A stretch of DNA of 64,000 nt from Dehalococcoidia bacterium (GCA_965220205.1 OZ244812.1:2089678-2153677); one strand, 5' to 3'; positions 8,467 through 57,455 are shown, numbered from the stretch's first letter. The notes: generated by a model not told the origin, from the sequence alone. Numbers and translations: made by a program.

Positions 8467-8494
8467 GCGAGCTTGGCCGCGAGGAGAGCTGGTC

Positions 8495-20503: not shown

Positions 20504-20659
20504 GGAACCTCTGAACCAATCGCTGAGGCCCTCAGCAGTAGCGGAAGGGAGAGACTGGGAGCCCCCTCGATCCGTTCGTGGAACCCCCTTCGACAGGCTC
20601 AGGACAGGCTTCGACGAGCTCAGGGCGAACGGATTGGGGCGGAGTTATTCAGAGGTTCC
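20504..20659. mobile_element. MITE (156 bp) derived from the IS5-family element at 42804..43996
   Basis: Terminal inverted repeats GGAACCTCTGAAC / TTCAGAGGTTCC. Flanked by TTAG at 20500-20503 and 20660-20663. Near-identical copy at 40104..40254. Confidence 0.85.
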
Positions 20660-20697
20660 TTAGGCTTCGGCCCCAAGACAACGATGGAGGACGTTTG

Positions 20698-30933: not shown

Positions 30934-31971
30934 TTATTTCCGCAGCGCTCTCTCCAGCTCTGCTAAGAAGATCGTCGTGTCTGCCATATAATTCGGGTAT
31001 ATTTTTCGTAAGTCTTTCAGTGATTGAGTAGATGCCAACAGCACATCCTTGTTCAGGTCTGTCCTGTAGGTAGACTCCAACTCAGCCAACCGCGACGAAG
31101 CTAATTCGGATTCGCGCTTGGGGAAGGAGTGGATAGTCATCAAATGCGTAGAGCTGTCCAATTCGATCAGGTAGTGATACGCATTCTTTGTTCGTTGTCC
31201 TTGGTGGTAGTGAGCCGCCGCGCGGATTGCGCGTAACCGATCTCTTACGTTGAGGTCGCGCTCCAACTCCCTAATCTCATTGACTATCTCGTCTTGCCTC
31301 TCTGGAGTTCCTGGGACTAGTGGTGTATGTTCGCGTATAGCTAGCATACTCCCCATAAGTGCAAAGAATCGCTCCCAGTTATCTGACCCCTGATGTATCT
31401 TCAGCAGCTGTTTCGCGAATGTATCCACCGTTTCTACTGCAGTGGCCCAACAGTGCTGGTAACGTGACCGTATTTGTATTTCTATCCGCTGTCCATCGTA
31501 TTGCGACGAGTGATCGCTGCGATAGTGATAGACCAGGTGGATACTTCGATAGCCGAACTTGTTGGGAAGCTCAATATGGTTCGTAACATGGTCTAATTCA
31601 TGCCTGATTCGACCTGTTTGGTATTTGGCAGCCAAGGCATTGGCTGCACGTGTAGATGCTACGACCGCTCGACATCCAGCGATATCCTGCATAGTTGATA
31701 GCGATACGTTCTTCAAGCGACGCAACTTCGATTCTATCGCAGGAAGTCGCTTGACGCGCTGTGCGATAGGTGGGCTTCTACGGTCAACCTCTCTGGCTTT
31801 GTCCCGAAGGCGCATCTGCATAGTGTTGAGCGGGAAGGCGTGCGCTGCACGCCAGTTGTTCACCACCACTAGTGCCGCATCGATGTCTGACTGCGAGGAG
31901 CGTTTCGAAATTAGGCGACGCCCAGCGTCGTCAATCTGGTCATCATCGTATTCGCGAATGGCCCATGTCAT
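30934..31971 (-). CDS. stand-alone RelA/SpoT-domain protein (small alarmone synthetase / toxSAS-like) with a helical C-terminal domain of about 140 aa
   Basis: All synthetase motifs present: QRVKRLPAIESKLRR, MQDIAGCRAVV, GYRSIHLVY, IEIQIRSRYQHCWATAVE. Gene lies in a markedly AT-richer segment. Confidence 0.85.
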   Translation of the reverse strand: MTWAIREYDDDQIDDAGRRLISKRSSQSDIDAALVVVNNWRAAHAFPLNTMQMRLRDKAREVDRRSPPIAQRVKRLPAIESKLRRLKNVSLSTMQDIAGCRAVVASTRAANALAAKYQTGRIRHELDHVTNHIELPNKFGYRSIHLVYHYRSDHSSQYDGQRIEIQIRSRYQHCWATAVETVDTFAKQLLKIHQGSDNWERFFALMGSMLAIREHTPLVPGTPERQDEIVNEIRELERDLNVRDRLRAIRAAAHYHQGQRTKNAYHYLIELDSSTHLMTIHSFPKRESELASSRLAELESTYRTDLNKDVLLASTQSLKDLRKIYPNYMADTTIFLAELERALRK

Positions 31972-35798: not shown

Positions 35799-36064
35799 GA
35801 ACCTCTGAACAAGGTTCGCCCCTCCTCAATCCTCCCCCGTAGGGGCCGTTGCGCAACTCTGCTTGACGACCGCTGTTCTTCCCGCCCACCCGCCCCAAAC
35901 GTTGGTGTGGGGGACACCCCCACGCCCCCGGCAGAGGGCTCAGCCCTCTGCACTCCCCATCGGGCGAGTACGAGAGCGGTCCCTACGAGTTATGCAAAGG
36001 TCTCCGTGGGGGAGGAGGCCGGACTGGAGCGACCGACTGACCGACGAACTTGTTCAGAGGTTCC
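35799..36064. mobile_element. MITE (266 bp) with IS5-type termini, carrying the double-hairpin repeat
   Basis: GAACCTCTGAACAAG ... CTTGTTCAGAGGTTCC. Flanked by CTAG at 35795-35798 and 36065-36068. Interior matches 38086..38343 and 38392..38617. Confidence 0.85.
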
Positions 36065-36520
36065 CTAGGCTGAGAGCCCGACCAGCGAGCGCACGAGCGC
36101 TTCCTTCGCTGTGGGGATGCCGCAGCGCGACGCCAGGCCGCCGAGGCCCGCGGTCCGCGAGGCCGGGCCTCCGGCGAGCAACCCCGCCGCGAATTCTTCG
36201 GCTTGCCGCTCGGCCTTGAGCCGCGCGACCCACTGCCACGACTCGACGTAGAGGCTCGTGCCCGTGTGGAGCAGATGGTGGCCGACGGAGTGCGCCGTGA
36301 GCCAGCGCACCCACGGCTCGGGCAGGCGGTCGTCGATTCCGATAGTGCGCTCGACGATGACCTCGCGCACGCGCCCGGCGAACCGCCACGGCTCGACCTC
36401 GAGGCCGAGGTGCTCGAGGACCGGCCTCAACTCCGCGCCCGGCCCGATCCCCAGCTCGTCGGCGAGCGCGCAGCCTCGTTCGAACGATCTCATCGCCGGT
36501 CCTCCGTGCTCGTCATTCAT
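36065..36520 (-). CDS. ImmA/IrrE (M78)-like protein with HSxxH in place of HExxH
   Basis: LTAHSVGHHLLH and downstream ERQAEEFAAGLL match the M78 layout, but the catalytic Glu position is Ser. Start ATG at 36520 lies in the IS481 target duplication. Confidence 0.7.
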   Translation of the reverse strand: MNDEHGGPAMRSFERGCALADELGIGPGAELRPVLEHLGLEVEPWRFAGRVREVIVERTIGIDDRLPEPWVRWLTAHSVGHHLLHTGTSLYVESWQWVARLKAERQAEEFAAGLLAGGPASRTAGLGGLASRCGIPTAKEALVRSLVGLSA

Positions 36521-37565
36521 GTAGATGTTAGGTAATTCGTTGACAGATTTGGCTGGAGAACGAGCCAGTCTGGAGGCGAAGATGCGCGACAACAGCACCG
36601 ACCGCACCATCGAGCGGAACTATGTTCAGAAGTGGCGGTTCCTCATCCGGGAGTACGAACAGGTCAAGGCCAAGAGCCACCCCAAGTTCCGCTTCGTCCA
36701 GGACTTCTACGCCTTCCATGGGACCAACCGCCAGACCTTCGCCAAGTACTACAACCGCTATCGGCAGTCCGGCAACGGCGACGCCCTGCTGCCTGGCAAG
36801 CGGGGACCCCGTTGGAAGAGCCGCCGCACCCTCCCCTTCATCGAGGAGAAGGTGCTCGAGCTCCGGCGCAAGGGCATCAACCGCTACGAGATCTATGCCA
36901 TACTCAGGCCGGTGCTGAAGTCCCACACGCCAGCGCCCTCGACCATCTACGCCATCGCCCAGCGCCACGGCCTGAACCGGTTGACCAAGCCCATGCGGGA
37001 GTCCAAGCGCCAGATCATCAAGACCCGTGCCGGGGAGCTGGGCCACCTGGACTGCCACCACCTGAGCAAGGACCTGCTCGTGGGCGCCAGGCGGCGCTCC
37101 TACCTGGTGTGCGTGATCGACGCCTGCACCCGTCTGGCCTGGGCGGAGGTGGTGGACGACCTGAAGAGCCTGAGCGTCATGTTCGCGGCGCTGAAGAGCA
37201 TCAACCTGCTGAACGCCGAGTATGGAGTCCGGTTCGAGGCCATTCTCACGGACAACGGGGCCGAGGTGGCTTCGCCGGCCAACAAGGCCAACCACCCGAT
37301 GGAGCGGATGTTCCAGGAGCTGGGCATCACGCACCGCTACACGCGGCCCTACCGGCCGCAGACCAACGGGAAGGTCGAGCGGTTCTGGCGGACGCTGAAC
37401 GAGGACCTGCTGGACGAGACGACGTTCGAGTCGGTGGAGGAGCTGAAGGAGGAGTTGATGCAGTACCTCGTCTACTACAACACCGCACGGCCCCACCAGG
37501 GCCTCGGGGGAAAGACCCCCCTCCAAACCCTGCAAAATCTGTCAACGAATTAGCTGACACATACA
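36521..37565 (+). mobile_element. IS481-family insertion sequence (1045 bp)
   Basis: About 33-bp imperfect terminal inverted repeats sharing TAATTCGTTGACAGATTT. 6-bp direct repeat ATTCAT at 36515-36520 and 37566-37571. Confidence 0.88.
36525..37553 (+). CDS. IS481-family transposase (DDE/rve integrase core)
   Basis: HLDCHHL..., VIDACTRLAW, TDNGAE and YRPQTNGKVERFWRTL motifs, 342 aa. Confidence 0.92.
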   Translation: MLGNSLTDLAGERASLEAKMRDNSTDRTIERNYVQKWRFLIREYEQVKAKSHPKFRFVQDFYAFHGTNRQTFAKYYNRYRQSGNGDALLPGKRGPRWKSRRTLPFIEEKVLELRRKGINRYEIYAILRPVLKSHTPAPSTIYAIAQRHGLNRLTKPMRESKRQIIKTRAGELGHLDCHHLSKDLLVGARRRSYLVCVIDACTRLAWAEVVDDLKSLSVMFAALKSINLLNAEYGVRFEAILTDNGAEVASPANKANHPMERMFQELGITHRYTRPYRPQTNGKVERFWRTLNEDLLDETTFESVEELKEELMQYLVYYNTARPHQGLGGKTPLQTLQNLSTN

Positions 37566-37650
37566 ATTCATCGTGGGGGGCAACGGCCATTGTCAGCGCC
37601 GCCGCGGCGCGCCGCCAGGGTCCGCTGTCACTGCAGGGCGGGGGGCTCGG

Positions 37651-38010
37651 TCAATCGGAGGAGCGCTTGAACCGCACGTAGCGGGCGAACTCCTTGACCT
37701 CGCCGAGCTCTTCTTCTGTGAGGTCGCCGAACTCGTAGAGGCGGGCAAGGTCGGTGGCGCGAACCGGGTTCTCGATCTCGTCCCGGGAGAGGTGGCCGGC
37801 CCGGAACAGGAGCTCGGACACCGGCAAGCCCATGGCCCCGGCGAGCTTCCTGAGGGTCGAGGGCCGCGGCACGTTCCCGTGGTTGAAGAGGGCGCTCAAT
37901 GTCGTGTGCGTAATGCCGGCGCGCTGGGCGAGCGCGAGCGCCGAGCTGTGGTGCTCGTCGATCCACTGACGAATGAACGACGCGAGCTGTAGGGAGTCTG
38001 ACGTTGCCAC
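37651..38010 (-). CDS. XRE-family HTH transcriptional regulator
   Basis: LALAQRAGITHTTLSALFNHGNVPRPSTLRKLAGAMG HTH. The N-terminal part of ORF 37651..38199 runs into repeat DNA, so the start is set at GTG 38010 (uncertain). Confidence 0.7.
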   Translation of the reverse strand: MATSDSLQLASFIRQWIDEHHSSALALAQRAGITHTTLSALFNHGNVPRPSTLRKLAGAMGLPVSELLFRAGHLSRDEIENPVRATDLARLYEFGDLTEEELGEVKEFARYVRFKRSSD

Positions 38011-38085
38011 GCGTCGGATTGTACACCATCGGTTGTCCGCGACACGCGGCTGTTCAGACTTGGAGAGAGGAACGTCTCTCGCCGA

Positions 38086-38617
38086 CAGACGAGACCTTGC
38101 ATGGCTGCTTGACGAGCGCTGTTCTTCCCACCCGCCCGCCCCAAACGTTGGTGTGGGGGACACCCCCACGCCCCTGGCAGAGGGCTCAGCCCTCTGCACT
38201 CCCCCCGCTGGGCGACTGCGAGAACCGCCCCCAACGAGTTATGCAAAGGTCTCGCAGACGGGGAGAGGACTTTTGAGGCAATGACGGGGACGTGGCGTCA
38301 GGGGTGGGTTCCCGTGTCAAGCACGAGAATGACGGAACGGGGCGCGGGTGTGTAGGCGGGCGGAGCGCGGCCCTCTCTCTAACTCCCCCCGCAGACGAGA
38401 TCTTGCATAGCTGCTTGACGGCGCTGTTCTTCCCGCCCGCCCACCCGCAACGCTTGGTGGGGGACACCCCCACGCCCCCGGCAGAGGGCTTTGCCCTCTG
38501 CACTCCCCCATTGGGCGACTACAAGAGCCGCCGCTACGAGTTAGGCAAAGGTCTCCCGCGCGGCCCGCCGGGGGCGCATGGGTTCCCGTGTCAAGCACGA
38601 GAACGACGGAACGGGGC
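38086..38617. repeat. two tandem copies (about 258 and 226 bp) of a structured repeat with two hairpins plus a REP hairpin
   Basis: Each unit has CTGCTTGACG..GCTGTTCTTCCC, GTGGGGG-ACA-CCCCCAC, GCAGAGGGCT..GCCCTCTGC, TTATGCAAAGGTCTC and CCCGTGTCAAGCACGAGAA. A third copy lies inside the MITE at 35859..36010. Confidence 0.85.
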
Positions 38618-38654
38618 GGCGACGCTGGTCGTCCGCGACACGCGGCGGTATCAG

Positions 38655-40103
38655 ATGCGAGGCCTTGGAGAATGTCAGATAACTGTCAGTGATAGTCGTG
38701 ATTATGCCAGAGCGCAACAGAGGAGGGTCACGCCATTGCCGGACGGCGATCGAGGGAGCGAGGGGCCGGACGCCTCAGTCCTGCTTCAGTACGAGAACGA
38801 CCCGCGGGGCTTTGTCGCGCAAGTGCTGGGCGGGACGGGCGAGCCGTACGCCAAGCAGGAGGAAATGCTCGACGCGGTTGCGACGCGCCGCAGGGTGACG
38901 GTGGTGGGCTGCAACGGCTCGGGGAAGGACTGGGCGGCGGCCCGCATTGTGCTCTGGTGGGTCGCGACGCGCCCGCGCGCGAAAACGATCGTCACGGGAC
39001 CGACGCAGCGTCAGGTGGAGGAGGTGGTGTGGCGGGAGATGCGCATCGCCTACGCGACGGCGGCCGGGGCGCTTCCGGGACAGATGCACGCGTCGCGCTA
39101 CGTGATCGACGATCAACGCTTCGCGCTCGGCTTCGCGACGGACCACCCGTACAACCTGCAGGGGTTCCACTCGCCGAGCCTGATGGTCGTGGTCACGGAA
39201 GCGCATGCGGTTGCTCAGGAGCATATGAACGCGCTCAAGCGCCTCAACCCGAAGCTGGTGTTGCTGACGGGCAACCCGCTGACCGTGAGCGGAGAGTTCT
39301 ATGACTCGCACCACGGCAACAGCACGCTCTACGCCCAGATCGGGATCAGCGCGTTCGATACGCCGAACGTAGCGTCGGGCAGAAACGACGCCGTCCCGGG
39401 GATGCTCACGATGGAGGACGTCGAGGAGCGCCGCGTCGAGTGGGGCGAAGACCACCCGATGTACGTCGCGTCGATACTGGGGCAGTTCCCCGAGTCGCTG
39501 GAAGACACGTTGGTCTCGCGGACGCAACTGAGCGACGCGGTGGAGCGGTGGCGCCTGACGGCGCCGGAATCGGGCAAGGAATGGGTGATGGGGGTGGACG
39601 TCGCCCGTTTCGGCGCGGACAAGTCGGTCCTGTGCCTGCGGCGCGGCGGACGGGTGGAGGAGATCGTGAGCCGTCGCGGGCTCAGCACGATGCAGCTGGC
39701 CGGACTCATCGTCGACCGACTGAAGCGCCACGACATCAGGGCGGTGTTCGTCGACGCGGCGGGCGTGGGCGGGGGCGTGGTCGACCGGCTGAAGGAGAAC
39801 AACCATCCGGTGATCGAGGTGCAGGTAGGGGCGTCGTCGAGCAACTCGGAGCGGTACGCGAACCTGCGCGCCGAGCTGTTCTGGGAGCTGCGCCGGCGGT
39901 TCAGGGAAGGCGCGATCGCGATTCCCGACGATCCGGAGCTGGCAGGCCAGCTGCTGGCGATTCGATACGAGTACACGTCGAGCGGACAGGTCCAGCTCGA
40001 GAGCAAGAAGAAGATGAAGGCCCAGGGCGGCGCGTCGCCCGACAAGGCGGACGCGCTGGCGCTCGCGTTCATGGGAACGCCGTCGCTGGACGTTTGGATA
40101 TAG
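38655..40103 (+). CDS. phage terminase large subunit
   Basis: Walker A VVGCNGSGKD, Walker B LMVVVTEAH, nuclease-domain motifs MGVDVARFGADKSV, VFVDAAGVGGGVVDRL and SPDKADALALAF. The upstream part of ORF 38292.. is repeat DNA. Confidence 0.88.
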   Translation: MRGLGECQITVSDSRDYARAQQRRVTPLPDGDRGSEGPDASVLLQYENDPRGFVAQVLGGTGEPYAKQEEMLDAVATRRRVTVVGCNGSGKDWAAARIVLWWVATRPRAKTIVTGPTQRQVEEVVWREMRIAYATAAGALPGQMHASRYVIDDQRFALGFATDHPYNLQGFHSPSLMVVVTEAHAVAQEHMNALKRLNPKLVLLTGNPLTVSGEFYDSHHGNSTLYAQIGISAFDTPNVASGRNDAVPGMLTMEDVEERRVEWGEDHPMYVASILGQFPESLEDTLVSRTQLSDAVERWRLTAPESGKEWVMGVDVARFGADKSVLCLRRGGRVEEIVSRRGLSTMQLAGLIVDRLKRHDIRAVFVDAAGVGGGVVDRLKENNHPVIEVQVGASSSNSERYANLRAELFWELRRRFREGAIAIPDDPELAGQLLAIRYEYTSSGQVQLESKKKMKAQGGASPDKADALALAFMGTPSLDVWI

Positions 40104-40254
40104 GGGAATCTCTGAACAGTCGCCGATGCCCTCAGCAGTGCGGAAGGGAGACTGGGCTCCCCCAATCCGTTCTGGAACCCCCCTTCGACAGGCTCGGGAC
40201 AGGCTTCGACAGGCTCAGGGCGAACGGATTGGGACGGAGTTATTCAGAGGTTCC
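40104..40254. mobile_element. MITE (151 bp), same family as 20504..20659
   Basis: GGGAATCTCTGAAC ... TTCAGAGGTTCC, flanked by TAG on both sides. The left TAG is the terminase stop codon. Confidence 0.85.
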
Positions 40255-40331
40255 TAGCCGCGAGGGCAGGCGCTAGCGGCGGAGAGGTCCGAGCAAAGAA
40301 GCCGGGAAGCTATGACAGGAGGTAACGAGAG

Positions 40332-41513
40332 ATGCTGAAGTCGATGCGGAGACTGTTCGAGACGCCGGCGCCGACGGAACGCGCGAACGCGCCGCTGGCG
40401 GTGGGCATGCGACTGTTGCAGCCCGACCGCGGCGTTGGCGGCGAGTGGCAGTCGCCGGTGTACGGCGAGTACTACGCCCGCAGCGCCGACGTGTACGCGG
40501 CGGTGAAGCTGCGGGGCGAGGCGGTGGCGCGGCCCCCGCTGGTCGTGCGGACGCGGGACGCGTCGGGAGTCTCGCGCGCCGCGCCGCCAAGCCACCCGGT
40601 GCAACATCTCCTCGATTCGGTCAACCCGTTCTGGAGCAAGTCGGGGTTGCTCATCGCGACGGAGACGTACCTGTGCCTATGGGGCTCGGCGTTCTGGTTC
40701 CTCGGCCATTCGGAGCGGGCCGGGAGCGTTCCGGACGAGATATGGCCGCTCCGGCCGGACCGCGTGCGGGTGGTGCGCGACGCGAGGCGGTACATATCGG
40801 GGTTCGTGTACACGGAGGCGGGCCAGGACCTGCCGATGCTGCCCGAGGAGGTGGTCTGGTTCCGCTACTTCAACCCGTTGGAGGAGTTCTCGGGCCTCTC
40901 GCCGATGGCGGCGGCGCGGCTGACGGCCGATATGGGCATGGACGCGCTCCGCTTCAATCGCGAGTTCTTCCGGAACGGGGCCCAGCCGCAGGACCTCGTC
41001 TTCCGGGCGCGAGGGCCGGTGACCGACGACCAGGTGGCGGACTTCTACGCGCGGTTGGAGCAGCGGTTCACGGGTCCATCGCGGGCGCACCGGCCCATCG
41101 TCACGGGCGACGGGTGGGAGGTGCAGCGACTCGGCGTCAACCAGCGGGACATGGAATGGCTGGCGGGCCTGCGGTGGAGCTTGGAGGGCGTGGCGCGGGT
41201 GTTCGGCGTGCCGCTGCCGCTACTCGAGGACTTCTCGCACGCGACGCTGAACAACGTGCGCGAGGCGCGTCGGATGTTCTGGGAGAAGACGATGGTCCCG
41301 GAGACGGTGTTCCTGACCGACGCGATCAACCAGGGGTTGCTGCCGCGCCTGGGCCCACAGGCGCAGGGCGCGGAGGTCGCGTTCGACCTGAGCGTCGTCG
41401 AAGCGCTCGGCGAGACGGAGTCAGAGCGAACGCGGCGGCACGTGGCGCTGGTCAACGCGGGGATCATGACGGTCGACGAGGCGCGCGCCGAGCGGGGTCT
41501 TGGCGCGGGCTGA
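40332..41513 (+). CDS. phage portal protein (HK97-type)
   Basis: 393 aa, RBS AGGAGG. Position between terminase and protease, and portal-like sequence pattern (by eye). Confidence 0.8.
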   Translation: MLKSMRRLFETPAPTERANAPLAVGMRLLQPDRGVGGEWQSPVYGEYYARSADVYAAVKLRGEAVARPPLVVRTRDASGVSRAAPPSHPVQHLLDSVNPFWSKSGLLIATETYLCLWGSAFWFLGHSERAGSVPDEIWPLRPDRVRVVRDARRYISGFVYTEAGQDLPMLPEEVVWFRYFNPLEEFSGLSPMAAARLTADMGMDALRFNREFFRNGAQPQDLVFRARGPVTDDQVADFYARLEQRFTGPSRAHRPIVTGDGWEVQRLGVNQRDMEWLAGLRWSLEGVARVFGVPLPLLEDFSHATLNNVREARRMFWEKTMVPETVFLTDAINQGLLPRLGPQAQGAEVAFDLSVVEALGETESERTRRHVALVNAGIMTVDEARAERGLGAG

Positions 41514-41602
41514 GGGGTACAGACCGGGAAGATGTGATAGAACCTCAGTGCTGGAAGTCCCCGCAAGGGGACGGTCAAGCGCGACCCGCGAGGGGAGGAA
41601 TC

Positions 41603-42643
41603 ATGCGATATCGGGAAGTAGGGAACACGGGGATCCGCATATCCGAGATCGGGTTTGGCGGCGGCGGCAACGCCGGGCTCATGGTGCGGGGCAGCGCCGA
41701 GCAACAGCTGGACGCCATCGAGCGGGCCATCGAGTTGGGGATCAACTACTTCGACCAGGCCCCCGACTACGGCGACGGCGTCTCCGAGACGAACCTCGGC
41801 CGCGCGCTCAAGGAGCTGGGCGTTCGTCCGTACATCGGCACCAAGGTCGAGGTGCGAGCCGACAACCTCTCCGATATCGCGGGACACGTCGTTCGCTCCG
41901 TGGATGAGAGCCTCGACCGGCTCGGCGTGGAGTACGTCGACTTTCTCCAGATACACAACGGCCCGGTGTCCGAGCGTTCAGAGCTCTCGGGCCGCAGCTA
42001 CACGCACCTGTGGATCGAGCACTACTTGGGCCCCGGCGGCGCACTCGAGGGCATGCAACGGGTCCAGCGCGCCGGGAAGACCCGGCACATCGGTTTCATC
42101 ACGCGGGGGAACGACGCCCCGGCGGCGCGGCGGCTCATCGACACGGGCGCGTTCAGCCTGATCAACGCGTCGGTGAACCTGTTCAACCCCTCCGCGTCGG
42201 TGCGGCCCTACGGGATGCGGCTGCGGGCGGACTACGGGGGAATCCTGGGCTACGCCGCGGACCACGGCGTGGGCGCCGCGATCTACAGTCCGCTCGCCGG
42301 GGGAGCCGTGACCGACAACGCGGCCGTCGGCGGTCCGCCGCACCCGTTGGGCCGCGGCGCCCGCGACCCCGAGAGCGGAGAGGTCGCGGCAGCGCAGTCG
42401 CGAGCGCTGCGGTTCCTCTCGCGGGCGCTGAGTCCCGACTCGCAGATGGACGACCATAGCCTCGCCGAGGCCGGCCTGCGATGGGTGCTGGCGCAGAAGG
42501 GCGTCACCGTGGCGCTCGGCGGATTCTCCGACCGCCAACAGGTCGAGGAGAACGCCTCCTACTCCGGAAAGGGGCCCCTTTCCGAGGAGAACATGGCGCG
42601 CCTCGAACAGGCGTGGCGCGGGAACTTCGGGTTGGACGGCTAG
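41603..42643 (+). CDS. aldo/keto reductase
   Basis: MRYREVGNTGIRISEIGFGGG..., INYFDQAPDYG, IGTKV and YSPLAGG motifs. RBS GGAGGAA. Confidence 0.9.
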   Translation: MRYREVGNTGIRISEIGFGGGGNAGLMVRGSAEQQLDAIERAIELGINYFDQAPDYGDGVSETNLGRALKELGVRPYIGTKVEVRADNLSDIAGHVVRSVDESLDRLGVEYVDFLQIHNGPVSERSELSGRSYTHLWIEHYLGPGGALEGMQRVQRAGKTRHIGFITRGNDAPAARRLIDTGAFSLINASVNLFNPSASVRPYGMRLRADYGGILGYAADHGVGAAIYSPLAGGAVTDNAAVGGPPHPLGRGARDPESGEVAAAQSRALRFLSRALSPDSQMDDHSLAEAGLRWVLAQKGVTVALGGFSDRQQVEENASYSGKGPLSEENMARLEQAWRGNFGLDG

Positions 42644-42803
42644 GGCGTCTATCGTCAGCGCTATTCAGTGATGGCTCGCACGTCGGCTGAGTACGCCACA
42701 CGCCAACGGAGGACGCCATGAGCCCCGGCCGCCTCGCAGCAATCGGCATGATCGCCGCACTCATGGGATTCGTGGCCTTCGGAATCGCCCGCGACTTGGC
42801 TAA

Positions 42804-43996
42804 GGAATCTCTGAACAAGTCTATAGGTTGAGGCAGTATCCTGGCAGTCACCCAGTGGCGCCAGGGAGTGAAGCGATGATGGACCAACCGACCTTTGCAG
42901 ACGTGGACTACGAGAGCAAGAAGCGCAAGACCCGCAGGGAGCGATTTCTCGAACGCATGGGCGGGCTGATCCCCTGGGAACGGCTGGAAGGGCGCATCCG
43001 TCCCTTCTACCCCACGGCGGGCCGGGGACGCCATCCGTATGCCCTGTCGGCGATGCTGCGGATTCACTGCGTGCAGCTGTTCTACAACCTCAGCGACCCC
43101 GGCATGGAGGACCTGCTGTACGACGTGGAGTCGGTGCGGCGGTTCGTGGGCTTGAAGCTGTCGGAGCCGCTGCCGGACGAGACCACCATCCTGAACTTCC
43201 GTCATCTGTTGGAGGAGCACGAACTGGGGGAGGGACTGTTCGCGGAGATCAAAGGGCATCTGGCGTCCCAGGGACTCCTGCTCCAGGAAGGGACAATCAT
43301 GGACGCGAGCATCATCGAGGCGCCGTCGTCGACGAAGAATCGAGCGGGTGCGCGAGACCCGGAGATGCACCAAGTGAAGAAGGGGAACAGGTGGCATTTC
43401 GGGATGAAGGTGCACATCGGGGTGGACGCGGAGACGGGGGTGGTGCACAGCGTCGCGACGACGCCGGCCAATGTGAACGACGTGACGGAAGCGCACCGGT
43501 TGCTGCACGGCGGCGAGTCGCAGGTGTGGGGCGATGCCGGGTATCAGGGAGTCCAGAAGCGGGCGGAGCATCGGGGGCTGGAGGTGGAGTGGCAGGTGGC
43601 GATGCGACCGGGCCAACGTCGGCAGTTGGAGCCGGGAAGCCCTGAGGCGTTGGCGGAGAAGGGCAAGGCGTCGGTCCGGGCGAAGGTGGAGCATCCGTTC
43701 CTGTACGTCAAACGGCACTTTGGCTACGCCAAGGTCCGCTACCGGGGGCTGGCCAAGAACACGCAACGGCTGATGGTGCTGCTGGGGCTGGCGAACCTGA
43801 TGAGAGCCCAGCGGTGCTTGGCGGCATGACGGAGGCGCAGTGGGTTCAGATCGGGGTTGGGAGCAGGGAATCCGCCCCAGCAGGGTCGGTAGAAGACCCC
43901 CAACAGCCCCGTTCACGGCACCAGCAGAGGGCTGCGAATCGCTGAAGAGCCCCCCACCAACACCACTCGGCCGACTGTGAGTTGTTCAGAGGTTCC
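42804..43996 (+). mobile_element. IS5-family insertion sequence (1193 bp)
   Basis: Inverted repeats GGAATCTCTGAACAAG / GTTGTTCAGAGGTTCC. 4-bp target duplication CTAA at 42800-42803 and 43997-44000. Confidence 0.9.
42876..43829 (+). CDS. IS5-family DDE transposase
   Basis: MMDQPTFADVDYESKKRKTRRERFL..., IMDASIIEAPSS, WHFGMKVHIGVD, GDAGYQG and the C-terminal YRGL..N motif typical of IS5. Confidence 0.92.
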   Translation: MMDQPTFADVDYESKKRKTRRERFLERMGGLIPWERLEGRIRPFYPTAGRGRHPYALSAMLRIHCVQLFYNLSDPGMEDLLYDVESVRRFVGLKLSEPLPDETTILNFRHLLEEHELGEGLFAEIKGHLASQGLLLQEGTIMDASIIEAPSSTKNRAGARDPEMHQVKKGNRWHFGMKVHIGVDAETGVVHSVATTPANVNDVTEAHRLLHGGESQVWGDAGYQGVQKRAEHRGLEVEWQVAMRPGQRRQLEPGSPEALAEKGKASVRAKVEHPFLYVKRHFGYAKVRYRGLAKNTQRLMVLLGLANLMRAQRCLAA

Positions 43997-44702
43997 CTAA
44001 CGATGAGTTGACCGAACCGCTTGTTAGACTCGCCTGGGTAATCATCGGCGGCCTCTTGGCGTACAAGGTCTACGCCAACCGGCCAACCGCAGAGCCGTAC
44101 GCAGACGGAAAGCGCACTTTGTCGACCAACCGGGCGGTCTCGCTCGCCCTCCTGCTCTTGCCAGCGAGCTCCTGGGCCGGTCGCGCCACCGTCGACATCA
44201 TCCTCTACAACGAGTTCGGAACGTCCGCGGTCAAGTTCGCACTCGCGGCCGTCCTAGTCGGAATCGCCGCCATCGTCTACGCAAGACGGCCTGTCCATTG
44301 GTTCGACGAGGAACGGCGTCGCCGTCGGCGTGAGAACAACCAAGGGCCGCCCCCTCCCCTTCCGAGAGACGCCGAAGCGATGCTTCGCCTCGACAATCCC
44401 CCGAACAGACGCATGCGCTGATCGCGGTGAAGTCCTGTTCCCACTCCTTGAGAGTGGGGGCGACACCCCCCACGGCCGTCCTTGTTATTGACGTCGTTAC
44501 TGTGACATCGTGTCGTTGTATCTATGACGCTTCGCGCCTAGACTGATACCTACAGCGCATAAGCGGGGGACGAGCCCCCGGCGCTCCTTCGAAGGAAGGA
44601 CGCTGGGGGCTTTGTCGTGAGGGCCCGCCGCAAGGGACGCCCCGGCGGTCGTCTCTTCTCATCCGAGGCGTTGTTCAAGGTGCTGTTCGAGGGGAGGCGT
44701 GC

Positions 44703-45398
44703 ATGAGCACAACGGAGACCGAGACCGGGACCGACGGCGCGCGGTGGAGTCGAGACGTTTGGGAACGTGAGCGACTGCTCGAGTCGCTCGAATCGTACCG
44801 GCGCGGCCTGGCGGACGCGCCGACGGTGCAGAAGCACGCAGTAGGCCAGGCGCTCGTCCCGAACACCGACCGTCCGCTGACGTTCGTCGCGTCCGACGAG
44901 GCGGAGGACCGCCTGGGCGACATCGTCCGGGCCGGCGGGTGGGACCTGGACGCGTACAAGCGCAACCCCGTCTTCCTGTGGGCCCACGACTACACGCGGA
45001 CGCCGATCGGGCGCAGCGACTGGGTCGGCGTCGAGGACGGGCGGCTGCTGGCGACGGTGGGATTCGCTCCCACGGCGTTCGCGCAGGAAGTGGAGACGTT
45101 GTACCGCCACCGTTTCCTGCGGGCCGTGAGCGTGGGGTTCCGCCCCCAGGCGTTCACGTTCCGCAAGGGGCGCAACGGGGGCCTCGACGGGGTGGAGTAC
45201 TCGAAGCAGGAGCTGTTGGAGGTCAGCGCCGTGCCGGTGCCGGCCAACCCGCGGACGCTGGCCAAGGCGCTCGAAGGGGGTCTGGCCGTGCCGCGACTGC
45301 GGCCGCTGTTCACGCCCGGCGGCGGCGAGGAGGTGTGCGAGGACGCCGCGGCGGAGGTGATCGCGGGGCTGCGCCAGCTGCGCGCGAGCCTGGCGTAG
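44703..45398 (+). CDS. HK97-family prohead protease
   Basis: FVASDEAEDRLGDIV...NPVFLWAHD...AVSVGF pattern of S78 prohead proteases. Confidence 0.85.
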   Translation: MSTTETETGTDGARWSRDVWERERLLESLESYRRGLADAPTVQKHAVGQALVPNTDRPLTFVASDEAEDRLGDIVRAGGWDLDAYKRNPVFLWAHDYTRTPIGRSDWVGVEDGRLLATVGFAPTAFAQEVETLYRHRFLRAVSVGFRPQAFTFRKGRNGGLDGVEYSKQELLEVSAVPVPANPRTLAKALEGGLAVPRLRPLFTPGGGEEVCEDAAAEVIAGLRQLRASLA

Positions 45399-45514
45399 GG
45401 AGCGGCTCTCGTTGGCGCCGACTCGGCGGGCAGGCGGACCGAGTGGACGAAGCGAAGAGAACGGAAGGAAGAGCACGGAAGAATGAAGAGGGAAGAAGGG
45501 AAGAAGGAGGCCCG

Positions 45515-46840
45515 ATGCCAGGCGTAGCGGAGATACAGCGAGAGATAGCGCAGACCCAATCCTTCGTGCAGGAGCGGCTCGACCCGATGCGGCGGGAGGT
45601 CGGTCTGTTGCGCGAGGAGCAGGAGCGGCTGGCGGGCGAGGTCCGCACGCTGCTTGCCCAGCAGCGGAGCGAGCGCCGCGACGCGGTGCTGAGCCGAGCG
45701 TCCAACGACCGTGTGCGCGTGCGCGGCGGACAGCTCGACGGCTTCGACATGGTCGACCTCGCGATCATGCGCAGCCTGTTGACCGCGCAGCAGGCCCGGC
45801 CGCAGGACTACGACTCGCGCGCGTTGCAGGCGTGGGAGCAGAGCGTGCAGCGCGCCATGGACTCGACGACCGCGGGCGCCGGCGACGAGCTGGTGGGCCG
45901 CGAGGAGGCGCGGCAGCTCTGGGCCGACGTCAACGTGGAGACGGCCGTCGCCTCGCTGTTCGAGACCGTGACGATGCCCAGCAACCCGTTCGACATCCCG
46001 CTCCAGTTGGGCGACGTCAACTGGTACCCGGGGACCGCCAATGTCGCGGTCTCCTCGACCAACCTCTCGACGGCGAAGCAGACGCTGACGGCCTACGAGC
46101 TCGTCGGCATGGTGCCCTGGGCCTACGAGCTGGACGAGGACGCGGTGATCGCGATGATGGCGGAGGTCCGGGCGACGCTGCTGCGCAACTCGGCCCAAGT
46201 GCTCGACGACATCGTCCTCAACGCGGACACGTCGCTCACCGGGAACATCAACTACGACGGGACCGCGCTCACCGCCACGACTGTGGGCCACGCCCACTAC
46301 CTCGTCGGGTTCGACGGTCTGGTCCACCTGCCGTTGGTCGACAACACGGCTATGCGCAACGACCACAACGCGGCCGTCTCCGCCGATATGTTCAACGAGC
46401 TCAGGCGCAAGCTGGGCAAGTACGGTCTACGCCCATCGGAGCTTGCGTTCGTGACGGACGTCAACACGTTCATCGCGGTCCAGAGCATCACCGAGTTCCA
46501 GACCGTGGACAAGCTCGGCACCAACGCCACGCTGCTGACGGGCCAGCTCGGCTCGGTCGAGGGCGTCCCCGTGGTCGTGTCGGAGCAGATGGCGCTCGCG
46601 GACGCCGACGGCAAGGTCACGGCGGCAGGGAACGTGGCCAGCACGGGCCGCCTGCTGCTGGTCAACCGGACGCAATGGCGCAAGGGCTTCAAGCGGGAGC
46701 TGCTCATCGAGACGGAACGCGACGTGCAGCGGCGGCAAAACGTGATGGTGGTGAGCATGCGCGTGGCGTTCGCCGAGCGCACCGGGTCGCGGACATCCGC
46801 CGCCCACACCGCGCTGCAGTTCAACATCACGGGCGTGTAG
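45515..46840 (+). CDS. HK97-fold major capsid protein
   Basis: 441 aa. N-terminal coiled-coil delta-like region, then capsid-like core. RBS GAAGGAGG. Position after the protease. Confidence 0.82.
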   Translation: MPGVAEIQREIAQTQSFVQERLDPMRREVGLLREEQERLAGEVRTLLAQQRSERRDAVLSRASNDRVRVRGGQLDGFDMVDLAIMRSLLTAQQARPQDYDSRALQAWEQSVQRAMDSTTAGAGDELVGREEARQLWADVNVETAVASLFETVTMPSNPFDIPLQLGDVNWYPGTANVAVSSTNLSTAKQTLTAYELVGMVPWAYELDEDAVIAMMAEVRATLLRNSAQVLDDIVLNADTSLTGNINYDGTALTATTVGHAHYLVGFDGLVHLPLVDNTAMRNDHNAAVSADMFNELRRKLGKYGLRPSELAFVTDVNTFIAVQSITEFQTVDKLGTNATLLTGQLGSVEGVPVVVSEQMALADADGKVTAAGNVASTGRLLLVNRTQWRKGFKRELLIETERDVQRRQNVMVVSMRVAFAERTGSRTSAAHTALQFNITGV

Positions 46841-46851
46841 GAGTGGCCGCA

Positions 46852-46875
46852 GGGGCGCCTCACGAGAGGCGCCCC
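46852..46875 (+). terminator. 10-bp GC hairpin after the capsid gene (no U-tract)
   Basis: GGGGCGCCTC-ACGA-GAGGCGCCCC. Confidence 0.4.
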
Positions 46876-46933
46876 GCGGCAACGGTGTGGCTCGTACGAA
46901 ACGACAACGAACGGACAAGAGGAGGCAACTCTC

Positions 46934-47377
46934 ATGGCAGACCCTCAGCGGGATGCTCCCATCGGCGAGATTCTGACGGCGTTGTTCCCGGCGTCCGGGA
47001 CGGCGGTGCTTCCCAAGGCGGCGAAGGCGCCGCTGGCCCAGACAGCGGGCAACGCGGGCGTGCTCTCGTGGCAGAACCCGGAGCCGGTCGCGGTGCTGGC
47101 GGCGGTGGTGATCGACGTCACCGCGGCCGCGGCAGGCCAGACAGCGGACGTCGGCGTCGACAAGGACGGCGCGGGCTCCAGCGACAACCTGCTCGACGGC
47201 GTGTCCCTGGCGAAGATTGGCGCTCTGTCGAGCTTCGCCAACTCCGGCACGCACGGCGCCGCCTTCCGCAAGGTCGACGCCCGTGGCGGCTCGCGCGACT
47301 ACATCACGGCGACGGCCAGCGCCGATCCGTCCGCGCTGGCCGGCAACGCCTACGTCATCTATGTCCCCGTCACCTGA
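46934..47377 (+). CDS. hypothetical head-module protein (147 aa)
   Basis: Good coding composition. Position directly after the capsid gene (decoration or scaffold-type slot). Confidence 0.55.
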   Translation: MADPQRDAPIGEILTALFPASGTAVLPKAAKAPLAQTAGNAGVLSWQNPEPVAVLAAVVIDVTAAAAGQTADVGVDKDGAGSSDNLLDGVSLAKIGALSSFANSGTHGAAFRKVDARGGSRDYITATASADPSALAGNAYVIYVPVT

Positions 47378-47424
47378 AGGGCCGGCAGCCCGAGAGCCGG
47401 TCGACCATAGAGAGAGGAGGGTCC

Positions 47425-47898
47425 ATGCCCACGACACCACCGTTCAGACGCGCCGCGCGGTCCGACTACGCGCCGAGCGTGCGCCCCCGGACCGCGGGGC
47501 CGGACGGTCAGCCGCAACTGACGCCGGGCTACCTGTCGGACCTGTCCGACACGAAGTTCCTGTATGTCTTCAGCGCTGGCCGGATAACCAGGCGCGCGAC
47601 GCTGGCGACGCCCTCCAGCGGCATGCGCCTGAGGGTCATACGCGTCGCGGTCCATCAACTAGTCTCGGACGGGGTGCACTACGCGGAGCTCTACTTTGGC
47701 GCCGGCGTAAACATCTCCATCCACCCCGACAAAGCCATCGACTTCATCCGGGTCCCCGACCAGGGCGAAGGGTCGTCCCGGTCGTGGGGCCGTGGCCGCG
47801 GACCCGTGGGGCAGCGGAACGAAGTGCTGAGCATGAGGTGGACGTTCGCGCCCGACGCCTCGCACCGCGTCATCGTCGAGTACACGGAGGAGAGATAG
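47425..47898 (+). CDS. hypothetical protein (157 aa)
   Basis: ATG behind GAGAGGAGGG. C-terminal part of long ORF 45832..47898; only this part looks coding. Confidence 0.55.
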   Translation: MPTTPPFRRAARSDYAPSVRPRTAGPDGQPQLTPGYLSDLSDTKFLYVFSAGRITRRATLATPSSGMRLRVIRVAVHQLVSDGVHYAELYFGAGVNISIHPDKAIDFIRVPDQGEGSSRSWGRGRGPVGQRNEVLSMRWTFAPDASHRVIVEYTEER

Positions 47899-47899
47899 C

Positions 47900-48718
47900 A
47901 TGGCGCGCGAAGCATACCGGTCCCTCTATGGCGACCTCGCCAAGCTCAAGGGCGCGTCGCTGCTCGACGGCCCCGCGGACGACTCGGCGAACGACGACGC
48001 GCTGTTCCAGCTGCTGCTGGCCGTGTCGGCGCATGTGGACAGCCTCTGCAACCGTCACTTCTACCCGCTGACGGAGACGCGCCGCTTCGACGGCACGGCC
48101 GAGGCGCAGCTCGCTGTCCCCGACCTCATCTCGGTCTCGAGCCTCAGGTCGGACGATGACGACGACGGGATATACGAGACGACGTGGGCCGACGCGGACT
48201 ACGAGCTCACGCCCCAGAACGCGGCCCCGACGGCGCACTGGGGCGCTCCGCACCAGGCGCTCCGGGTGCGCTCGCACGGGGCCAAGCAACAGTTCCAACG
48301 AGGCCATAGCCGCTACGAGATCGCGGCGGTCTGGGGCTACCGCTTCCACCGGGAGCCGTCGGGCTCCCTGCTCGCCGCTGCGGTCTCCGACGCGGCGACG
48401 TCCGTGCAGGTCGATTCAGGCGCGGACTTCGCGCCCGGCCAGACTATCGTGATCGAGTCGGAGCAACTCTTGGTTACGGCGATTTCGAGCAACGCCTTGC
48501 AGGCGACCCGCGGCCTCAACGGGACGACTGCCGCCGCCCATGCGAACGACAGGGCGGTGGACATCCTGCGATGGCCCGCTCCCGTGGAACGCGCGGCGCT
48601 GATCAACGCTGCCCGCATCTGGGCGAGGGCGCCCGCGTTCGAGCCGTTCTATGTGGACGTCGACCTCGACACGGATGTCCGCCTGCTGCTCGAACCCTAC
48701 CGCAGAATGCCCGGGTAG
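47900..48718 (+). CDS. putative head-tail connector (gp6-like N-terminus) protein
   Basis: DDALFQLLLAVSAHVDSLCNRHF resembles the gp6-type connector signature. 272 aa. Confidence 0.55.
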   Translation: MAREAYRSLYGDLAKLKGASLLDGPADDSANDDALFQLLLAVSAHVDSLCNRHFYPLTETRRFDGTAEAQLAVPDLISVSSLRSDDDDDGIYETTWADADYELTPQNAAPTAHWGAPHQALRVRSHGAKQQFQRGHSRYEIAAVWGYRFHREPSGSLLAAAVSDAATSVQVDSGADFAPGQTIVIESEQLLVTAISSNALQATRGLNGTTAAAHANDRAVDILRWPAPVERAALINAARIWARAPAFEPFYVDVDLDTDVRLLLEPYRRMPG

Positions 48719-48721
48719 GCT

Positions 48722-49030
48722 GTGACGACGCACACGCAACGAGAACGGCTCGCGTCGCTGGAAGCGCGACAGCTGGGCCACGACCGCGAACACGGGCTGG
48801 TGGACCGCGTGTGGTCGGCGAAGCTGGACGCCATCGACGCGCGGGTTCGGAGCATCGAGCGCATCCTGCTGGAGGTCCCCATCCACGGCCGGCCCAACGA
48901 ATCGCAGGCGGCGGGAAGGCTGCGTCTGTCGAAGCGGGACGTGGGGGTGATGAGCGGCAGCGCCGCCGCGGCGTCGGCGGGGTGGTGGTTGGTGGAGGCG
49001 GCGATGTGGCTGCTGGGGGGCGGCGGCTAA
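48722..49030 (+). CDS. hypothetical protein with C-terminal TM helix (102 aa)
   Basis: Coiled-coil N-terminus and hydrophobic tail AAAASAGWWLVEAAMWLLGGGG. GTG start. Confidence 0.45.
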   Translation: MTTHTQRERLASLEARQLGHDREHGLVDRVWSAKLDAIDARVRSIERILLEVPIHGRPNESQAAGRLRLSKRDVGVMSGSAAAASAGWWLVEAAMWLLGGGG

Positions 49031-49374
49031 CCCACCTCCGCGCCGGCCTCCAGCAGCAGGCACGGCTCGCCCCACTGGGCCGCGTCCGCCAGGTCCCACG
49101 GGGCGTCCGACTCCTCCGGCCTCAGCCGTATGCCTTCGTCCCCGCCATAGACGAGGAGCGCGACGCCGTCGCCGGAGTCCCACACCCTGGCCGCGTACGC
49201 CGGGCACGGGCCGCCGGCGCCCCAGCCCGTGACGGCGCACGGGCCGTCGGCGCCGTCGCGCCGGAACGTGACCAGGCGGCGCACCTCCCGGGGCTCCTCC
49301 CGCGCGTCAAAGACGCGCGTCAACGGCAGCTCCGTGTTCTCGCAGGGCTCGACGTCAACCTCGATGCGGGGCAT
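49027..49374 (-). CDS. hypothetical protein (115 aa)
   Basis: ORF convergent on the island end. Non-repetitive composition. Confidence 0.4.
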   Translation of the reverse strand: MPRIEVDVEPCENTELPLTRVFDAREEPREVRRLVTFRRDGADGPCAVTGWGAGGPCPAYAARVWDSGDGVALLVYGGDEGIRLRPEESDAPWDLADAAQWGEPCLLLEAGAEVG

Positions 49375-50354: not shown

Positions 50355-50475
50355 CGGGGTGCTAGCCTGATTGGGTGCGCGAATACGCACCGGGAGCTGG
50401 GTGTGGCCTGGCTGAGAGGCCCCGCGAGTACGGGGCGACCGGCTACCTGATCTGGGTAATGCCAGCGGAGGGACG
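50355..50475 (+). promoter_or_regulatory. TPP (THI-box) riboswitch
   Basis: GGGGTGC..., CTGAGAG (50412-50418) and ACCTGATCTGGGTAATGCCAGCGGAGGGA. Upstream of thiG. Confidence 0.9.
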
Positions 50476-50481
50476 CGAGAC

Positions 50482-50512
50482 GGCCACCGTTCCTCCGGCG
50501 GTGGCCTTTTTT
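50482..50512 (+). terminator. riboswitch expression-platform terminator
   Basis: GGCCACCG (50482-50489) ... CGGTGGCC (50499-50506) followed by TTTTTT. Confidence 0.8.
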
Positions 50513-56531: not shown

Positions 56532-57455
56532 ATGGCTAACGAGTCGCAGTACGACGTCGTGATCGTCGGCGGGGGCGCCGCGGGCTTGGCCGCCTCGATC
56601 TACTCCGTCCGCGCGATGCTGAAGACGCTGGTCATCGAGCGGCAGGCGGTTGGCGGCCAGATTCTCTACACGGGCGAGATCGAGAACTACCCCGGGTTCC
56701 CCGAGCCCATCTCCGGACCGGACCTCGCGACGCTCTACGAGAAGCAGGCGGCCCGCTTCGGCGTCGAGTTCGAGTACGACACCGTGACCGCCCTCGACGT
56801 AGCGGGGCCCGTCAAGCGGGCGATCGGCGAGCTCGGCGAGTACACCGCGAAGAGCGTCATCATCACCTCCGGCGGCGAGCACAACAAACTCGGCGTCCCC
56901 GGCGAGGAGGCGTACTCAGGCAGGGGCGTCTCCTACTGCGCGACGTGCGACGGCAACTTCTTCCGCGACATGGACGTCACCGTGGTCGGCGGCGGCGACG
57001 CCGCGCTCGACGAGGGGCTCTATCTCACCCGCATGACGAAGAACGTGACGGTGGTGCACCGCCGCGATGAGCTGCGGGCGAGCAAGATTCTCCAGCAGCG
57101 GGGGTTCGACAACCCCAAGATGCAGTTCGTCTGGGACACGGTCGTCGAGGAGATCCGGGGCAACGGCGCCGTGAACGGCGTGGTCCTCAAGAATCTGAAG
57201 ACAGGGAAAGTCTCCGAGCGCGAGACCGAGGGCGTGTTCATCTACATCGGGTTCCACCCGATCAACGACTTCATGCGCGGCGTCGTGGACCTCGACAACG
57301 CGGGGCACGTCGTCACGGACCTGCAGATGCAGACCAGCGTCCCCGGCGTATTCGCCGCGGGCGACGTCAGGACGTTCTCGGACCGCCAACTCGCCAACGC
57401 CGTCGGCGACGGCGTCAGCGCAGCCCTCTCCGCCTACCGCTACATCGAAGGCTAG
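56532..57455 (+). CDS. trxB: thioredoxin-disulfide reductase
   Basis: VIVGGGAAGLAAS FAD motif, redox-active CATCDG, GGGDAALDEG NADPH motif. Confidence 0.95.
   Translation: MANESQYDVVIVGGGAAGLAASIYSVRAMLKTLVIERQAVGGQILYTGEIENYPGFPEPISGPDLATLYEKQAARFGVEFEYDTVTALDVAGPVKRAIGELGEYTAKSVIITSGGEHNKLGVPGEEAYSGRGVSYCATCDGNFFRDMDVTVVGGGDAALDEGLYLTRMTKNVTVVHRRDELRASKILQQRGFDNPKMQFVWDTVVEEIRGNGAVNGVVLKNLKTGKVSERETEGVFIYIGFHPINDFMRGVVDLDNAGHVVTDLQMQTSVPGVFAAGDVRTFSDRQLANAVGDGVSAALSAYRYIEG

Follow-up and report, generated by a model that had tools for sequence, protein, structure and literature searches.

The conversion of viral capsids into cellular structures has long been proposed as the origin of encapsulins, whose HK97-fold shell genes are chromosomal, retained by the host and under purifying selection. 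Gene transfer agents (GTAs) of the RcGTA type, described from Alphaproteobacteria, are phage-derived clusters without integrase or replication genes that sit at a fixed site, are inherited vertically over a large clade and evolve under purifying selection; their head genes run in the order large terminase (TerL), portal, protease, HK97 capsid and adaptor, and can be dispersed over several loci. Phage-inducible chromosomal islands of the capsid-forming kind (cf-PICIs), in the SatelliteFinder definition, encode an integrase, a primase-replicase, the small terminase subunit (TerS), with or without an HNH gene, and head genes of their own, with tails and holins absent (PMC10085698). In Thaumarchaeota, Nvie-Pro1 and CalSub-Pro are putatively domesticated loci derived from Caudovirales that have no att sites or replication genes and whose conserved morphogenetic modules were interpreted as possibly GTA-like (PMC6563490). 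Here, we analyze a 64,000-nucleotide stretch of DNA from a Dehalococcoidia bacterium (GCA_965220205.1 OZ244812.1:2089678-2153677), hereafter the window, in which positions 36,065 to 49,374 hold a cluster of phage head and packaging genes set between housekeeping genes.

We show that this cluster occupies a fixed chromosomal position, is vertically inherited and is under purifying selection. The reading that we prefer, and to which we give a probability of about 0.55, is that the region is the immobilized remnant of a siphovirus-like prophage, reduced to head and packaging genes and maintained by selection in SAR202-type Dehalococcoidia, and that it makes tailless DNA-containing heads. Essentially uncultured, SAR202 and related Dehalococcoidia rank with the most abundant bacteria in the deep ocean and in marine sponges. 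We found no description of the cluster in the literature.

Results

A head-only cluster between housekeeping genes

Genes in the window, which has a GC content of ~68%, were called from third-position GC and frame plots (Table 1). From left to right, the island comprises an ImmA-like gene, an insertion sequence (IS), an XRE-family regulator, repeats resembling miniature inverted-repeat transposable elements (MITE-like), the TerL and portal genes, an aldo/keto reductase, a 1.86-kb insert, the protease and capsid genes, four smaller frames (p147, p157, p272 and p102) and a 115-aa open reading frame (ORF). The ImmA-like and XRE genes point leftward, and TerL through p102 point rightward (island, 36.0-49.0 kb). 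A first-pass annotation, made from the sequence before this analysis, had described a head-only island between housekeeping genes, and its named genes lie at or near the positions it gave. Two details of that gene list did not stand: the aldo/keto reductase had been left out, and TerL, itself confirmed, had been started at 38655, for which the TTG codon at 38736 is the better choice, being preceded by AGGAGG and used in the 97%-identical relative L123.

Scans of the Pfam and PHROG type, covering ~45 of ~65 ORFs, returned no integrase, tail, lysis or replication family in the window. No TerS was found by Pfam or PHROG, the interval between XRE and TerL containing only MITE-like repeats, and no tRNA or att-like sequence lies at the island borders, the sole tRNA of the window being far away at 8.5 kb. 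No PF00589 or other recombinase adjoins the module in the window, in L082-L085 or in L123-L126. Of the head, tail, lysis, integration and replication genes of a functional HK97-like prophage, the island has head and packaging genes only.

In TerL, the Walker A motif (NGxGK), a VVxEA motif, the catalytic Glu and the nuclease Asp residues are invariant across 16 orthologues, and the WAH and VSVGF motifs of the protease, which carry His and Ser, are invariant across 38. The N terminus of the capsid protein is a coiled-coil delta (scaffolding) domain, and a separate scaffold gene is absent. Orthologues of the XRE regulator occur in L002, L004-L006, L010, L023, L123 and L124. The gene annotated as ImmA-like is present and leftward as described, and its M78 match is weak; in an alignment of its orthologues the HA/SxGH and ERQAEEFAAGLL motifs are conserved, with the catalytic Glu replaced (HSVGH in the window, and HA/SxGH for HExxH in all orthologues).

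To the right, cofE, a thiamine pyrophosphate (TPP) riboswitch, thiG and thiE follow the convergent 115-aa ORF (p115r), in agreement with the earlier description of cofE and housekeeping genes at this end; the riboswitch confirms the right flank as an ordinary thiamine operon. In genomes with only protease and capsid left, the orthologue of p115r adjoins proB/proA at another position, and p115r probably belongs to the host, marking the right border and standing outside the module. The remaining scanned window is ordinary chromosome, with FtsH, IF-2, a release factor, DHODH and others.

Table 1. Features of the island and its flanks, with the ratio of nonsynonymous to synonymous substitution (dN/dS) between the window and L123
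Feature	Position	Strand	Evidence and remarks	dN/dS
UDG	32439		Upstream flank; named from L123 orthologue	
LigT	33007		Upstream flank; named from L123 orthologue	0.33
GNAT	33794		Upstream flank	
PNPOx	35343		Upstream flank	
ImmA-like (M78-like), 142 aa by L123 homology	36065-36493	-	PF06114 weak, E 1.4e-3, below Pfam cut-off	
IS, rve-family transposase	36521-37567	+	rve_3, E 7e-23; window-specific, absent from L123, 4-bp junction overlap	
XRE-family helix-turn-helix (HTH) regulator, 119 aa	37651-38010	-	HTH_3 PF01381, E 2e-7; divergent from TerL	0.07
Two tandem MITE-like copies	38074-38569	.	Self-BLAST; XRE-TerL intergenic region, 75 bp in L123	
TerL, 455 aa	38736-40103	+	phrog_2, E 2e-37; weak Terminase_6C, E 2e-4	0.14
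Portal, 393 aa	40332-41513	+	PF04860, E 6e-62	0.13
Aldo/keto reductase	41603-42643	+	PF00248, E 2e-35; also in L123	
1.86-kb insert	42644-44498	+	Window-specific, absent from L123	
IS5-like element	42801-43999		Transposase 42828-43829; DDE_Tnp_1, E 1e-29; 21-nt inverted repeats	
S78 prohead maturation protease, 231 aa	44703-45398	+	PF04586, E 4e-7; phrog_617/80, E 2e-25	0.14
HK97-fold major capsid, 441 aa	45515-46840	+	PF05065, E 2e-8; phrog_10, E 6e-14	0.12
p147, 147 aa	46934-47377	+	Eight-stranded jelly roll, AlphaFold2 pLDDT 91	0.26
p157, 157 aa	47425-47898	+	Eight-stranded jelly roll, AlphaFold2 pLDDT 79; Arg-rich disordered N-arm	0.20
p272, 272 aa	47900-48718	+	gp6-type head-tail adaptor in N-terminal part, phrog_442, E 3.5e-12	0.15
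p102, 102 aa	48722-49030	+	Coiled coil and C-terminal hydrophobic anchor (membrane-anchored)	0.19
p115r, 115 aa	49027-49374	-	Convergent; dN/dS range given	0.09-0.11
cofE			Downstream flank	0.09
TPP riboswitch	50380-50490	+	RF00059, 55 bits; upstream of thiG-thiE	

Relatives and their distance from phages

The capsid has more than 1,200 homologues, whose identity falls without a break from 100% to 58% and whose lengths stay within 441-447 aa; the 795 portal homologues have a similar profile. A scan of a one-genome-per-species collection gave ~260 capsid matches, a figure that counts positives only. The contexts of the 80 best of these ~260 matches were each read over 10 kb on either side and, with 9 further Pfam-annotated contexts, make up the 89 contexts considered here. 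All 80 lie in metagenome-assembled genomes (MAGs) or closed chromosomes of Dehalococcoidia, SAR202 or Chloroflexota, each on a different record, with apparently one copy of the module per genome; many are MAGs or low-coverage long-read assemblies. Deposited phages are distant, reaching at most 26% identity in the capsid (T5-like phages, E ~1e-5) and at most 29% in the portal, and a scan of IMG/VR for complete phage relatives returned 37 contigs, all fragments of 4-16 kb, and not one full-length viral genome. The 80 loci, the 9 annotated contexts and the 37 IMG/VR contigs contain neither tail-tube, tape-measure or baseplate genes nor lysis genes, and in them no integrase lies beside an intact module; none of the 89 contexts is a prophage. 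In 9 distant loci, a tail-terminator-like neck gene (phrog_17840, E 7e-10) follows the adaptor, a fossil of a tailed ancestor.

Selection and descent

Our main dN/dS comparison pairs the window with L123, at a dS of ~0.1 that is similar inside and outside the island. The structural genes span 0.12-0.26, like the flanking genes, and across comparisons the capsid and the protease each stay within 0.12-0.14 and p102 within 0.19-0.24. Pairwise identity of the capsid tracks that of the host flanking genes (Spearman 0.63-0.89 for most) and exceeds it in most comparisons, as in L002-L006, where the capsid is 79% identical and cofE 48-55%. In L124, the capsid is 83% identical, with a dN/dS of 0.13, and cofE is less conserved at 77%. 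The orthologues, the dN/dS values and the fixed position together strongly support the proposal of the first-pass annotation that selection, rather than simple decay, accounts for the intact head genes. That annotation had also named what would speak against it, namely relatives with the same genes inside complete prophages, raised dN/dS or tail genes among 46934-49374; we found complete prophages in 0 of the 89 contexts, low dN/dS and no tail-like product in that interval.

Synteny and piecemeal loss

Conserved ORFs of the 80 loci were clustered to compare gene order. The closest group (L002, L004-L006 and L123) shares the arrangement UDG-LigT...ImmA-XRE-TerL-portal...protease-capsid...p115r-cofE, and L123 has exactly the gene order of the window from UDG to cofE, without the three insertions of the window. 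The group at 60% identity is located between Fe-S/GGT genes and an Opp-type transporter. Protease and capsid are present as a pair in 80 of 80 loci and are the only parts common to all. Downstream, orthologues of p272 are found in 48 of the 80, the p157 family (F1) in 41, as one to three tandem copies, and orthologues of p147 in 24. TerL and portal lie no more than 10 kb upstream in only ~15 loci, with variable cargo before the protease, and are inverted in three. The window is the most complete form of the module.

Two kinds of reduced locus are informative. In 19 species with capsids 73-78% identical to that of the window (state B), the UDG-LigT context upstream and the genes downstream are the same, and protease, an 82-aa ORF and capsid are all that remains of the module within the 10 kb read on either side. 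The dN/dS of these genes is 0.144 for the capsid, 0.117 for the protease and 0.155 for the 82-aa ORF, compared with 0.215 for the adjacent LigT. The 82-aa ORF is all-helical, lies between protease and capsid in 14 species (L007-L029; e.g., L016 9732-9980), is absent from the window and has no family match; it may encode a scaffold or cargo protein. In L124 (capsid 83% identical to that of the window), XRE is kept and protease, capsid, p147, p157 and p102 are intact, with TerL truncated at residue 359, the portal absent and the adaptor frameshifted. Truncated portal fragments are also present on long contigs. In L127 (8524-10744), the portal is a fragment of 247 aa, 79% identical to that of the window, and directly adjoins a tyrosine integrase; neither protease nor capsid lies within 10 kb. 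This suggests that the module was disrupted there by another integrative element.

Genes downstream of the capsid

The four frames from p147 to p102 were also called independently on an identical public contig. Neither p147 nor p157 has Pfam or PHROG relatives, and a PHROG scan of all family members gave no consistent family. AlphaFold models, built on alignments from protein searches, predict jelly rolls for both with confidence. The best PDB match of p147 is the cement protein of phage KHP30 (TM-score 0.47/0.53), and its matches in BFVD are small uncharacterized caudoviral proteins; Foldseek matches of p157 are jelly-roll coat proteins, the KHP30/KHP40 cement proteins and the Pam1 capsid. 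For the two together, the nearest structures are small jelly-roll coat proteins and, from phages, the trimeric cement protein of the Helicobacter phages KHP30 and KHP40 and a minor chain of the cyanophage Pam1 capsid, as matches at the level of the fold (TM-score 0.4-0.55). We regard p147 and p157 as candidate cement or decoration proteins because of their predicted fold and their position directly after the capsid gene rather than because of homology. An assignment of p157 as a small tail-tube protein was considered and dropped, given its eight-stranded jelly roll and its location before the adaptor. In L124 (11915-14206) and L031 (12577-15096), extra genes lie between the p147-like and p157-like genes; two of them encode Laminin_G_3 (concanavalin-like) proteins, which could be additional capsid-surface proteins.

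The gp6-like connector signature that had been reported among the four frames is in p272. This protein also carries an insert of ~40 residues, a beta motif shared with tail fibres and with minor tail proteins; its C-terminal half matches tail-fibre PHROGs, and its profile matches a repeat of the minor tail protein 8vjh (E 3e-3). Profile searches of p147, p157 and p272 against PDB sequences gave nothing usable beyond this 40-residue match of p272, the matches of p147 being spurious hits to a RecA concatemer. p102 has no family match and no relatives of known function, and its orthologues occur only in the closest lineage (L002, L004-L006, L009, L010, L123 and L124). None of the products encoded in 46934-49374 looks like a tail protein.

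Insertions and cargo

Insertions specific to the window were defined by comparison with L123, whose capsid is 97% identical. The rve-family IS sits between the stop codon of XRE and the start of the ImmA-like gene. The MITE-like family found in tandem upstream of TerL has a third copy at 35859-36005, on the 3′ side of the ImmA-like gene, and a second family fills the TerL-portal spacer (40104-40331) and recurs at 20503-20660; both are short repeats with GC-rich palindromes that land in intergenic DNA of the module. The 1.86-kb insert contains an ORF of ~165 aa with four transmembrane segments (42718-42800 and ~44004-44421) that is split by the IS5-like element, and its reading frame is restored once the halves are rejoined without that element. 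The first-pass annotation had noted this split membrane-protein gene, and what the comparison changes is that the entire segment was inserted and is missing from L123. Its observation that insertions spare the head genes is borne out, with no head gene of the window disrupted.

The aldo/keto reductase is cargo in a variable slot between portal and protease that holds other cargo in other genomes. In L084 and L085, 8 kb separate TerL/portal from the protease and hold asparaginase, hydrolase and IS genes, and in L126 the gap is filled by toxin-antitoxin and TIR-domain genes; L123 has an insertion of its own, a 5.2-kb ABC-transporter segment before cofE. The slot seems to act as a hotspot for defence or cargo genes. 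HicAB toxin-antitoxin genes, a helicase-like gene and the TIR-domain gene CAP12-PCTIR have gathered between or beside the dispersed portal and capsid genes (L126 2213-7636 and L125 16292-16770).

Discussion

All packaging and head genes of the window are intact and equally constrained. Regulated production of tailless DNA-filled heads is the activity that we consider most likely for the cluster. We propose that the XRE repressor and its ImmA-like partner, divergent from the structural operon, probably gate expression; that the capsid protein would assemble on the portal ring by means of its own delta domain and be matured by the S78 protease; and that TerL would then fill the shell with DNA, probably non-specifically because no TerS was found. 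The two jelly-roll proteins would cement the shell, and the gp6-type adaptor would cap the portal. What results would be a DNA-filled head of the HK97 type without a tail, acting as a tailless gene-transfer or DNA-export particle or being completed with the tails of an infecting phage. The host appears to use the cluster, and its regulation, particle formation, DNA content and benefit to the host are what we infer from sequence. Several points weigh against this proposal. The ImmA-like protein is without its catalytic Glu, and the searches turned up neither TerS nor a gene for lysis or release that would target DNA or let particles exit the cell. The negative result for tail genes covers 10 kb on either side of the capsid or portal only, and the dN/dS values come from Nei-Gojobori counting in genes with biased third-position GC, for which close pairs are reliable and distant pairs are saturated. 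Single frameshifts, as in L085 and L124, may be assembly errors in MAGs or low-coverage assemblies. Finally, several lineages (L124 and state B) have lost packaging and connector genes, or carry broken copies of them, and still have protease and capsid, which suggests that DNA packaging is not what selection acts on in all lineages.

The survival of protease and capsid alone in some lineages makes a shell-centred function a serious, if less likely, rival. The selected product would then be a protease-matured HK97 shell used as an intracellular compartment or storage cage, much as encapsulins are, with TerL, portal and adaptor as dispensable ancestral baggage kept in the lineage of the window. 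State B keeps three genes at the UDG-LigT locus with a dN/dS below that of the neighbouring LigT; L124 has no portal, a truncated TerL and a frameshifted adaptor, yet its capsid is intact and more conserved than cofE; portal fragments are truncated even on long contigs; and the protease and capsid are the sole parts present at all 80 loci. Against this stand the dN/dS values of TerL, portal and adaptor (0.13-0.15 in the window and its closest relatives), which reflect the same selection as on the capsid, and the persistence of TerL and portal in distant lineages, sometimes 8-10 kb away or inverted. Moreover, state B was viewed over 10 kb on either side, so that TerL and portal may have been relocated, no cargo protein with a targeting peptide was identified, and we know of no portal-less, protease-matured bacterial shell, which also counts against this explanation. 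A stronger version, in which an ancient, host-owned pair of HK97 capsid and prohead protease has a core cellular function in SAR202-type Dehalococcoidia, forms a new class of protein shell distinct from encapsulins and GTAs, has had portal, terminase and connector stripped from it in many lineages, and has its ancestral DNA-packaging stage in the window, is a tentative idea that we consider unlikely.

Improbable, and more so than a shell, is a helper-dependent capsid-forming element that makes its own heads and borrows tails, lysis and perhaps replication, maybe acting as a 'tail sink' that lowers the yield of the helper. Its appeal is that the gene set equals the hijacking half of a cf-PICI (TerL, portal, protease, capsid and adaptor, and neither tails nor holins), that an XRE/ImmA-type switch is typical of inducible elements, and that a conserved adaptor, together with a tail-terminator-like neck protein in 9 loci, would make sense if the heads dock foreign tails. 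Yet no integrase, excisionase, primase or replicase, TerS or HNH gene was found, nor a tRNA- or att-like border, and there is one copy per genome, in host-syntenic positions across species. In many genomes the module either has kilobases of host cargo between its parts or is inverted, which is incompatible with the en bloc packaging of a small element. The first-pass annotation had offered a cf-PICI-like satellite as one of three readings; membership in that class falls on the missing integrase, primase and TerS, the single copy and the host synteny, and of its content the borrowing of tails could still apply to the heads proposed here. Another of its readings, a decaying prophage stump, we reject. 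An ordinary functionless remnant that looks intact only through youth would account for the IS and MITE insertions and the cargo accumulated inside the region and for the truncation of TerL, portal or adaptor in some lineages, but it is hardly credible in view of ~260 one-genome-per-species orthologues of constant length at a fixed chromosomal position, dN/dS values (0.12-0.26) equal to or below those of the flanks, a capsid more conserved than most neighbours, invariant catalytic motifs and head genes undisrupted by insertions. A young decaying prophage is excluded by these data. The third reading, a domesticated GTA-like or shell system, fits best.

Compared with the described systems, the cluster would work most like a GTA, the best fit by analogy. 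It shares with RcGTA-type GTAs all the features listed at the outset, including a vertically inherited structural cluster under purifying selection with no genes for autonomous replication or integration. It differs from them in lacking a complete head and tail: genes for tail tube, tape measure, baseplate, fibre and lysis were not found in any of ~89 contexts, and a tail-terminator-like gene occurs in 9 loci only; TerS was not found, its proteins, from Chloroflexota rather than Alphaproteobacteria, are not close to known GTAs or phages, and some lineages have protease and capsid only. With cf-PICIs it shares its own TerL, portal, protease, capsid and adaptor (one adaptor-type gene was recognized), an upstream transcriptional regulator and freedom from tail and holin genes. 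In contrast to these islands, it has no integrase at its border and no primase-replicase, TerS or HNH gene, and it is immobile, host-syntenic, interrupted by cargo and conserved on the scale of a class, whereas cf-PICIs are patchily distributed. As with encapsulins, a gene for an HK97-fold shell lies in the chromosome and is retained by the host under purifying selection, and it stands nearly alone in some lineages. Unlike encapsulins, the cluster always has the S78 protease adjacent (80 of 80 loci), keeps the delta domain and, in the window, portal and TerL; its capsid matches Pfam Phage_capsid and not the encapsulin families, and no cargo-loading peptide was identified. Nvie-Pro1 and CalSub-Pro, which likewise have no att sites or replication genes, encode complete tails and are few and mutually divergent (PMC6563490), whereas the family described here is head-only and runs as a single orthologous series through hundreds of species. 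That the cluster is something categorically new, rather than a domesticated phage structural module, seems unlikely to us.

A housekeeping-like, head-only module in hundreds of species would be a new example of virus domestication outside Alphaproteobacteria and may be the first with tails absent throughout. Its lineages form a natural series, from a complete packaging head, through head genes scattered among cargo, to protease and capsid only, which lets the conversion of a viral capsid into a cellular structure be tested directly. Because such loci are picked up as 'viral contigs' (the 37 short IMG/VR entries), they can inflate estimates of prophages and of virus-host links for this clade.

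Other features of the window

The gene at 6597, which had been read as a second, SOS-controlled TerL, does not bear that name out: Pfam, PHROG and PADLOC gave no match for it, and BLASTP against the TerL of the island was negative. It is an orphan ORF of 455 aa (6597-7964, plus strand), followed by a small HTH protein (8019-8381, plus strand) and tRNA-Pro(ggg) (8495-8571, minus strand), and the region 6597-8571 could be a separate small integrated element.

Two genes elsewhere in the window resemble defence genes. At 57452-58498 (minus strand), a macro-domain protein matches DarG, from the anti-phage toxin-antitoxin system DarTG, over the full length (PADLOC, E 1e-130). At 30934-31971 (minus strand), 4 kb upstream of the head module, a 345-aa RelA/SpoT-domain gene (PF04607, E 6e-14) with a GC content of ~51%, against 68% for the window, is a full-length match to the PADLOC candidate defence family PDC-S33 (E 4e-109) and looks like a horizontally acquired defence gene of the toxSAS type.

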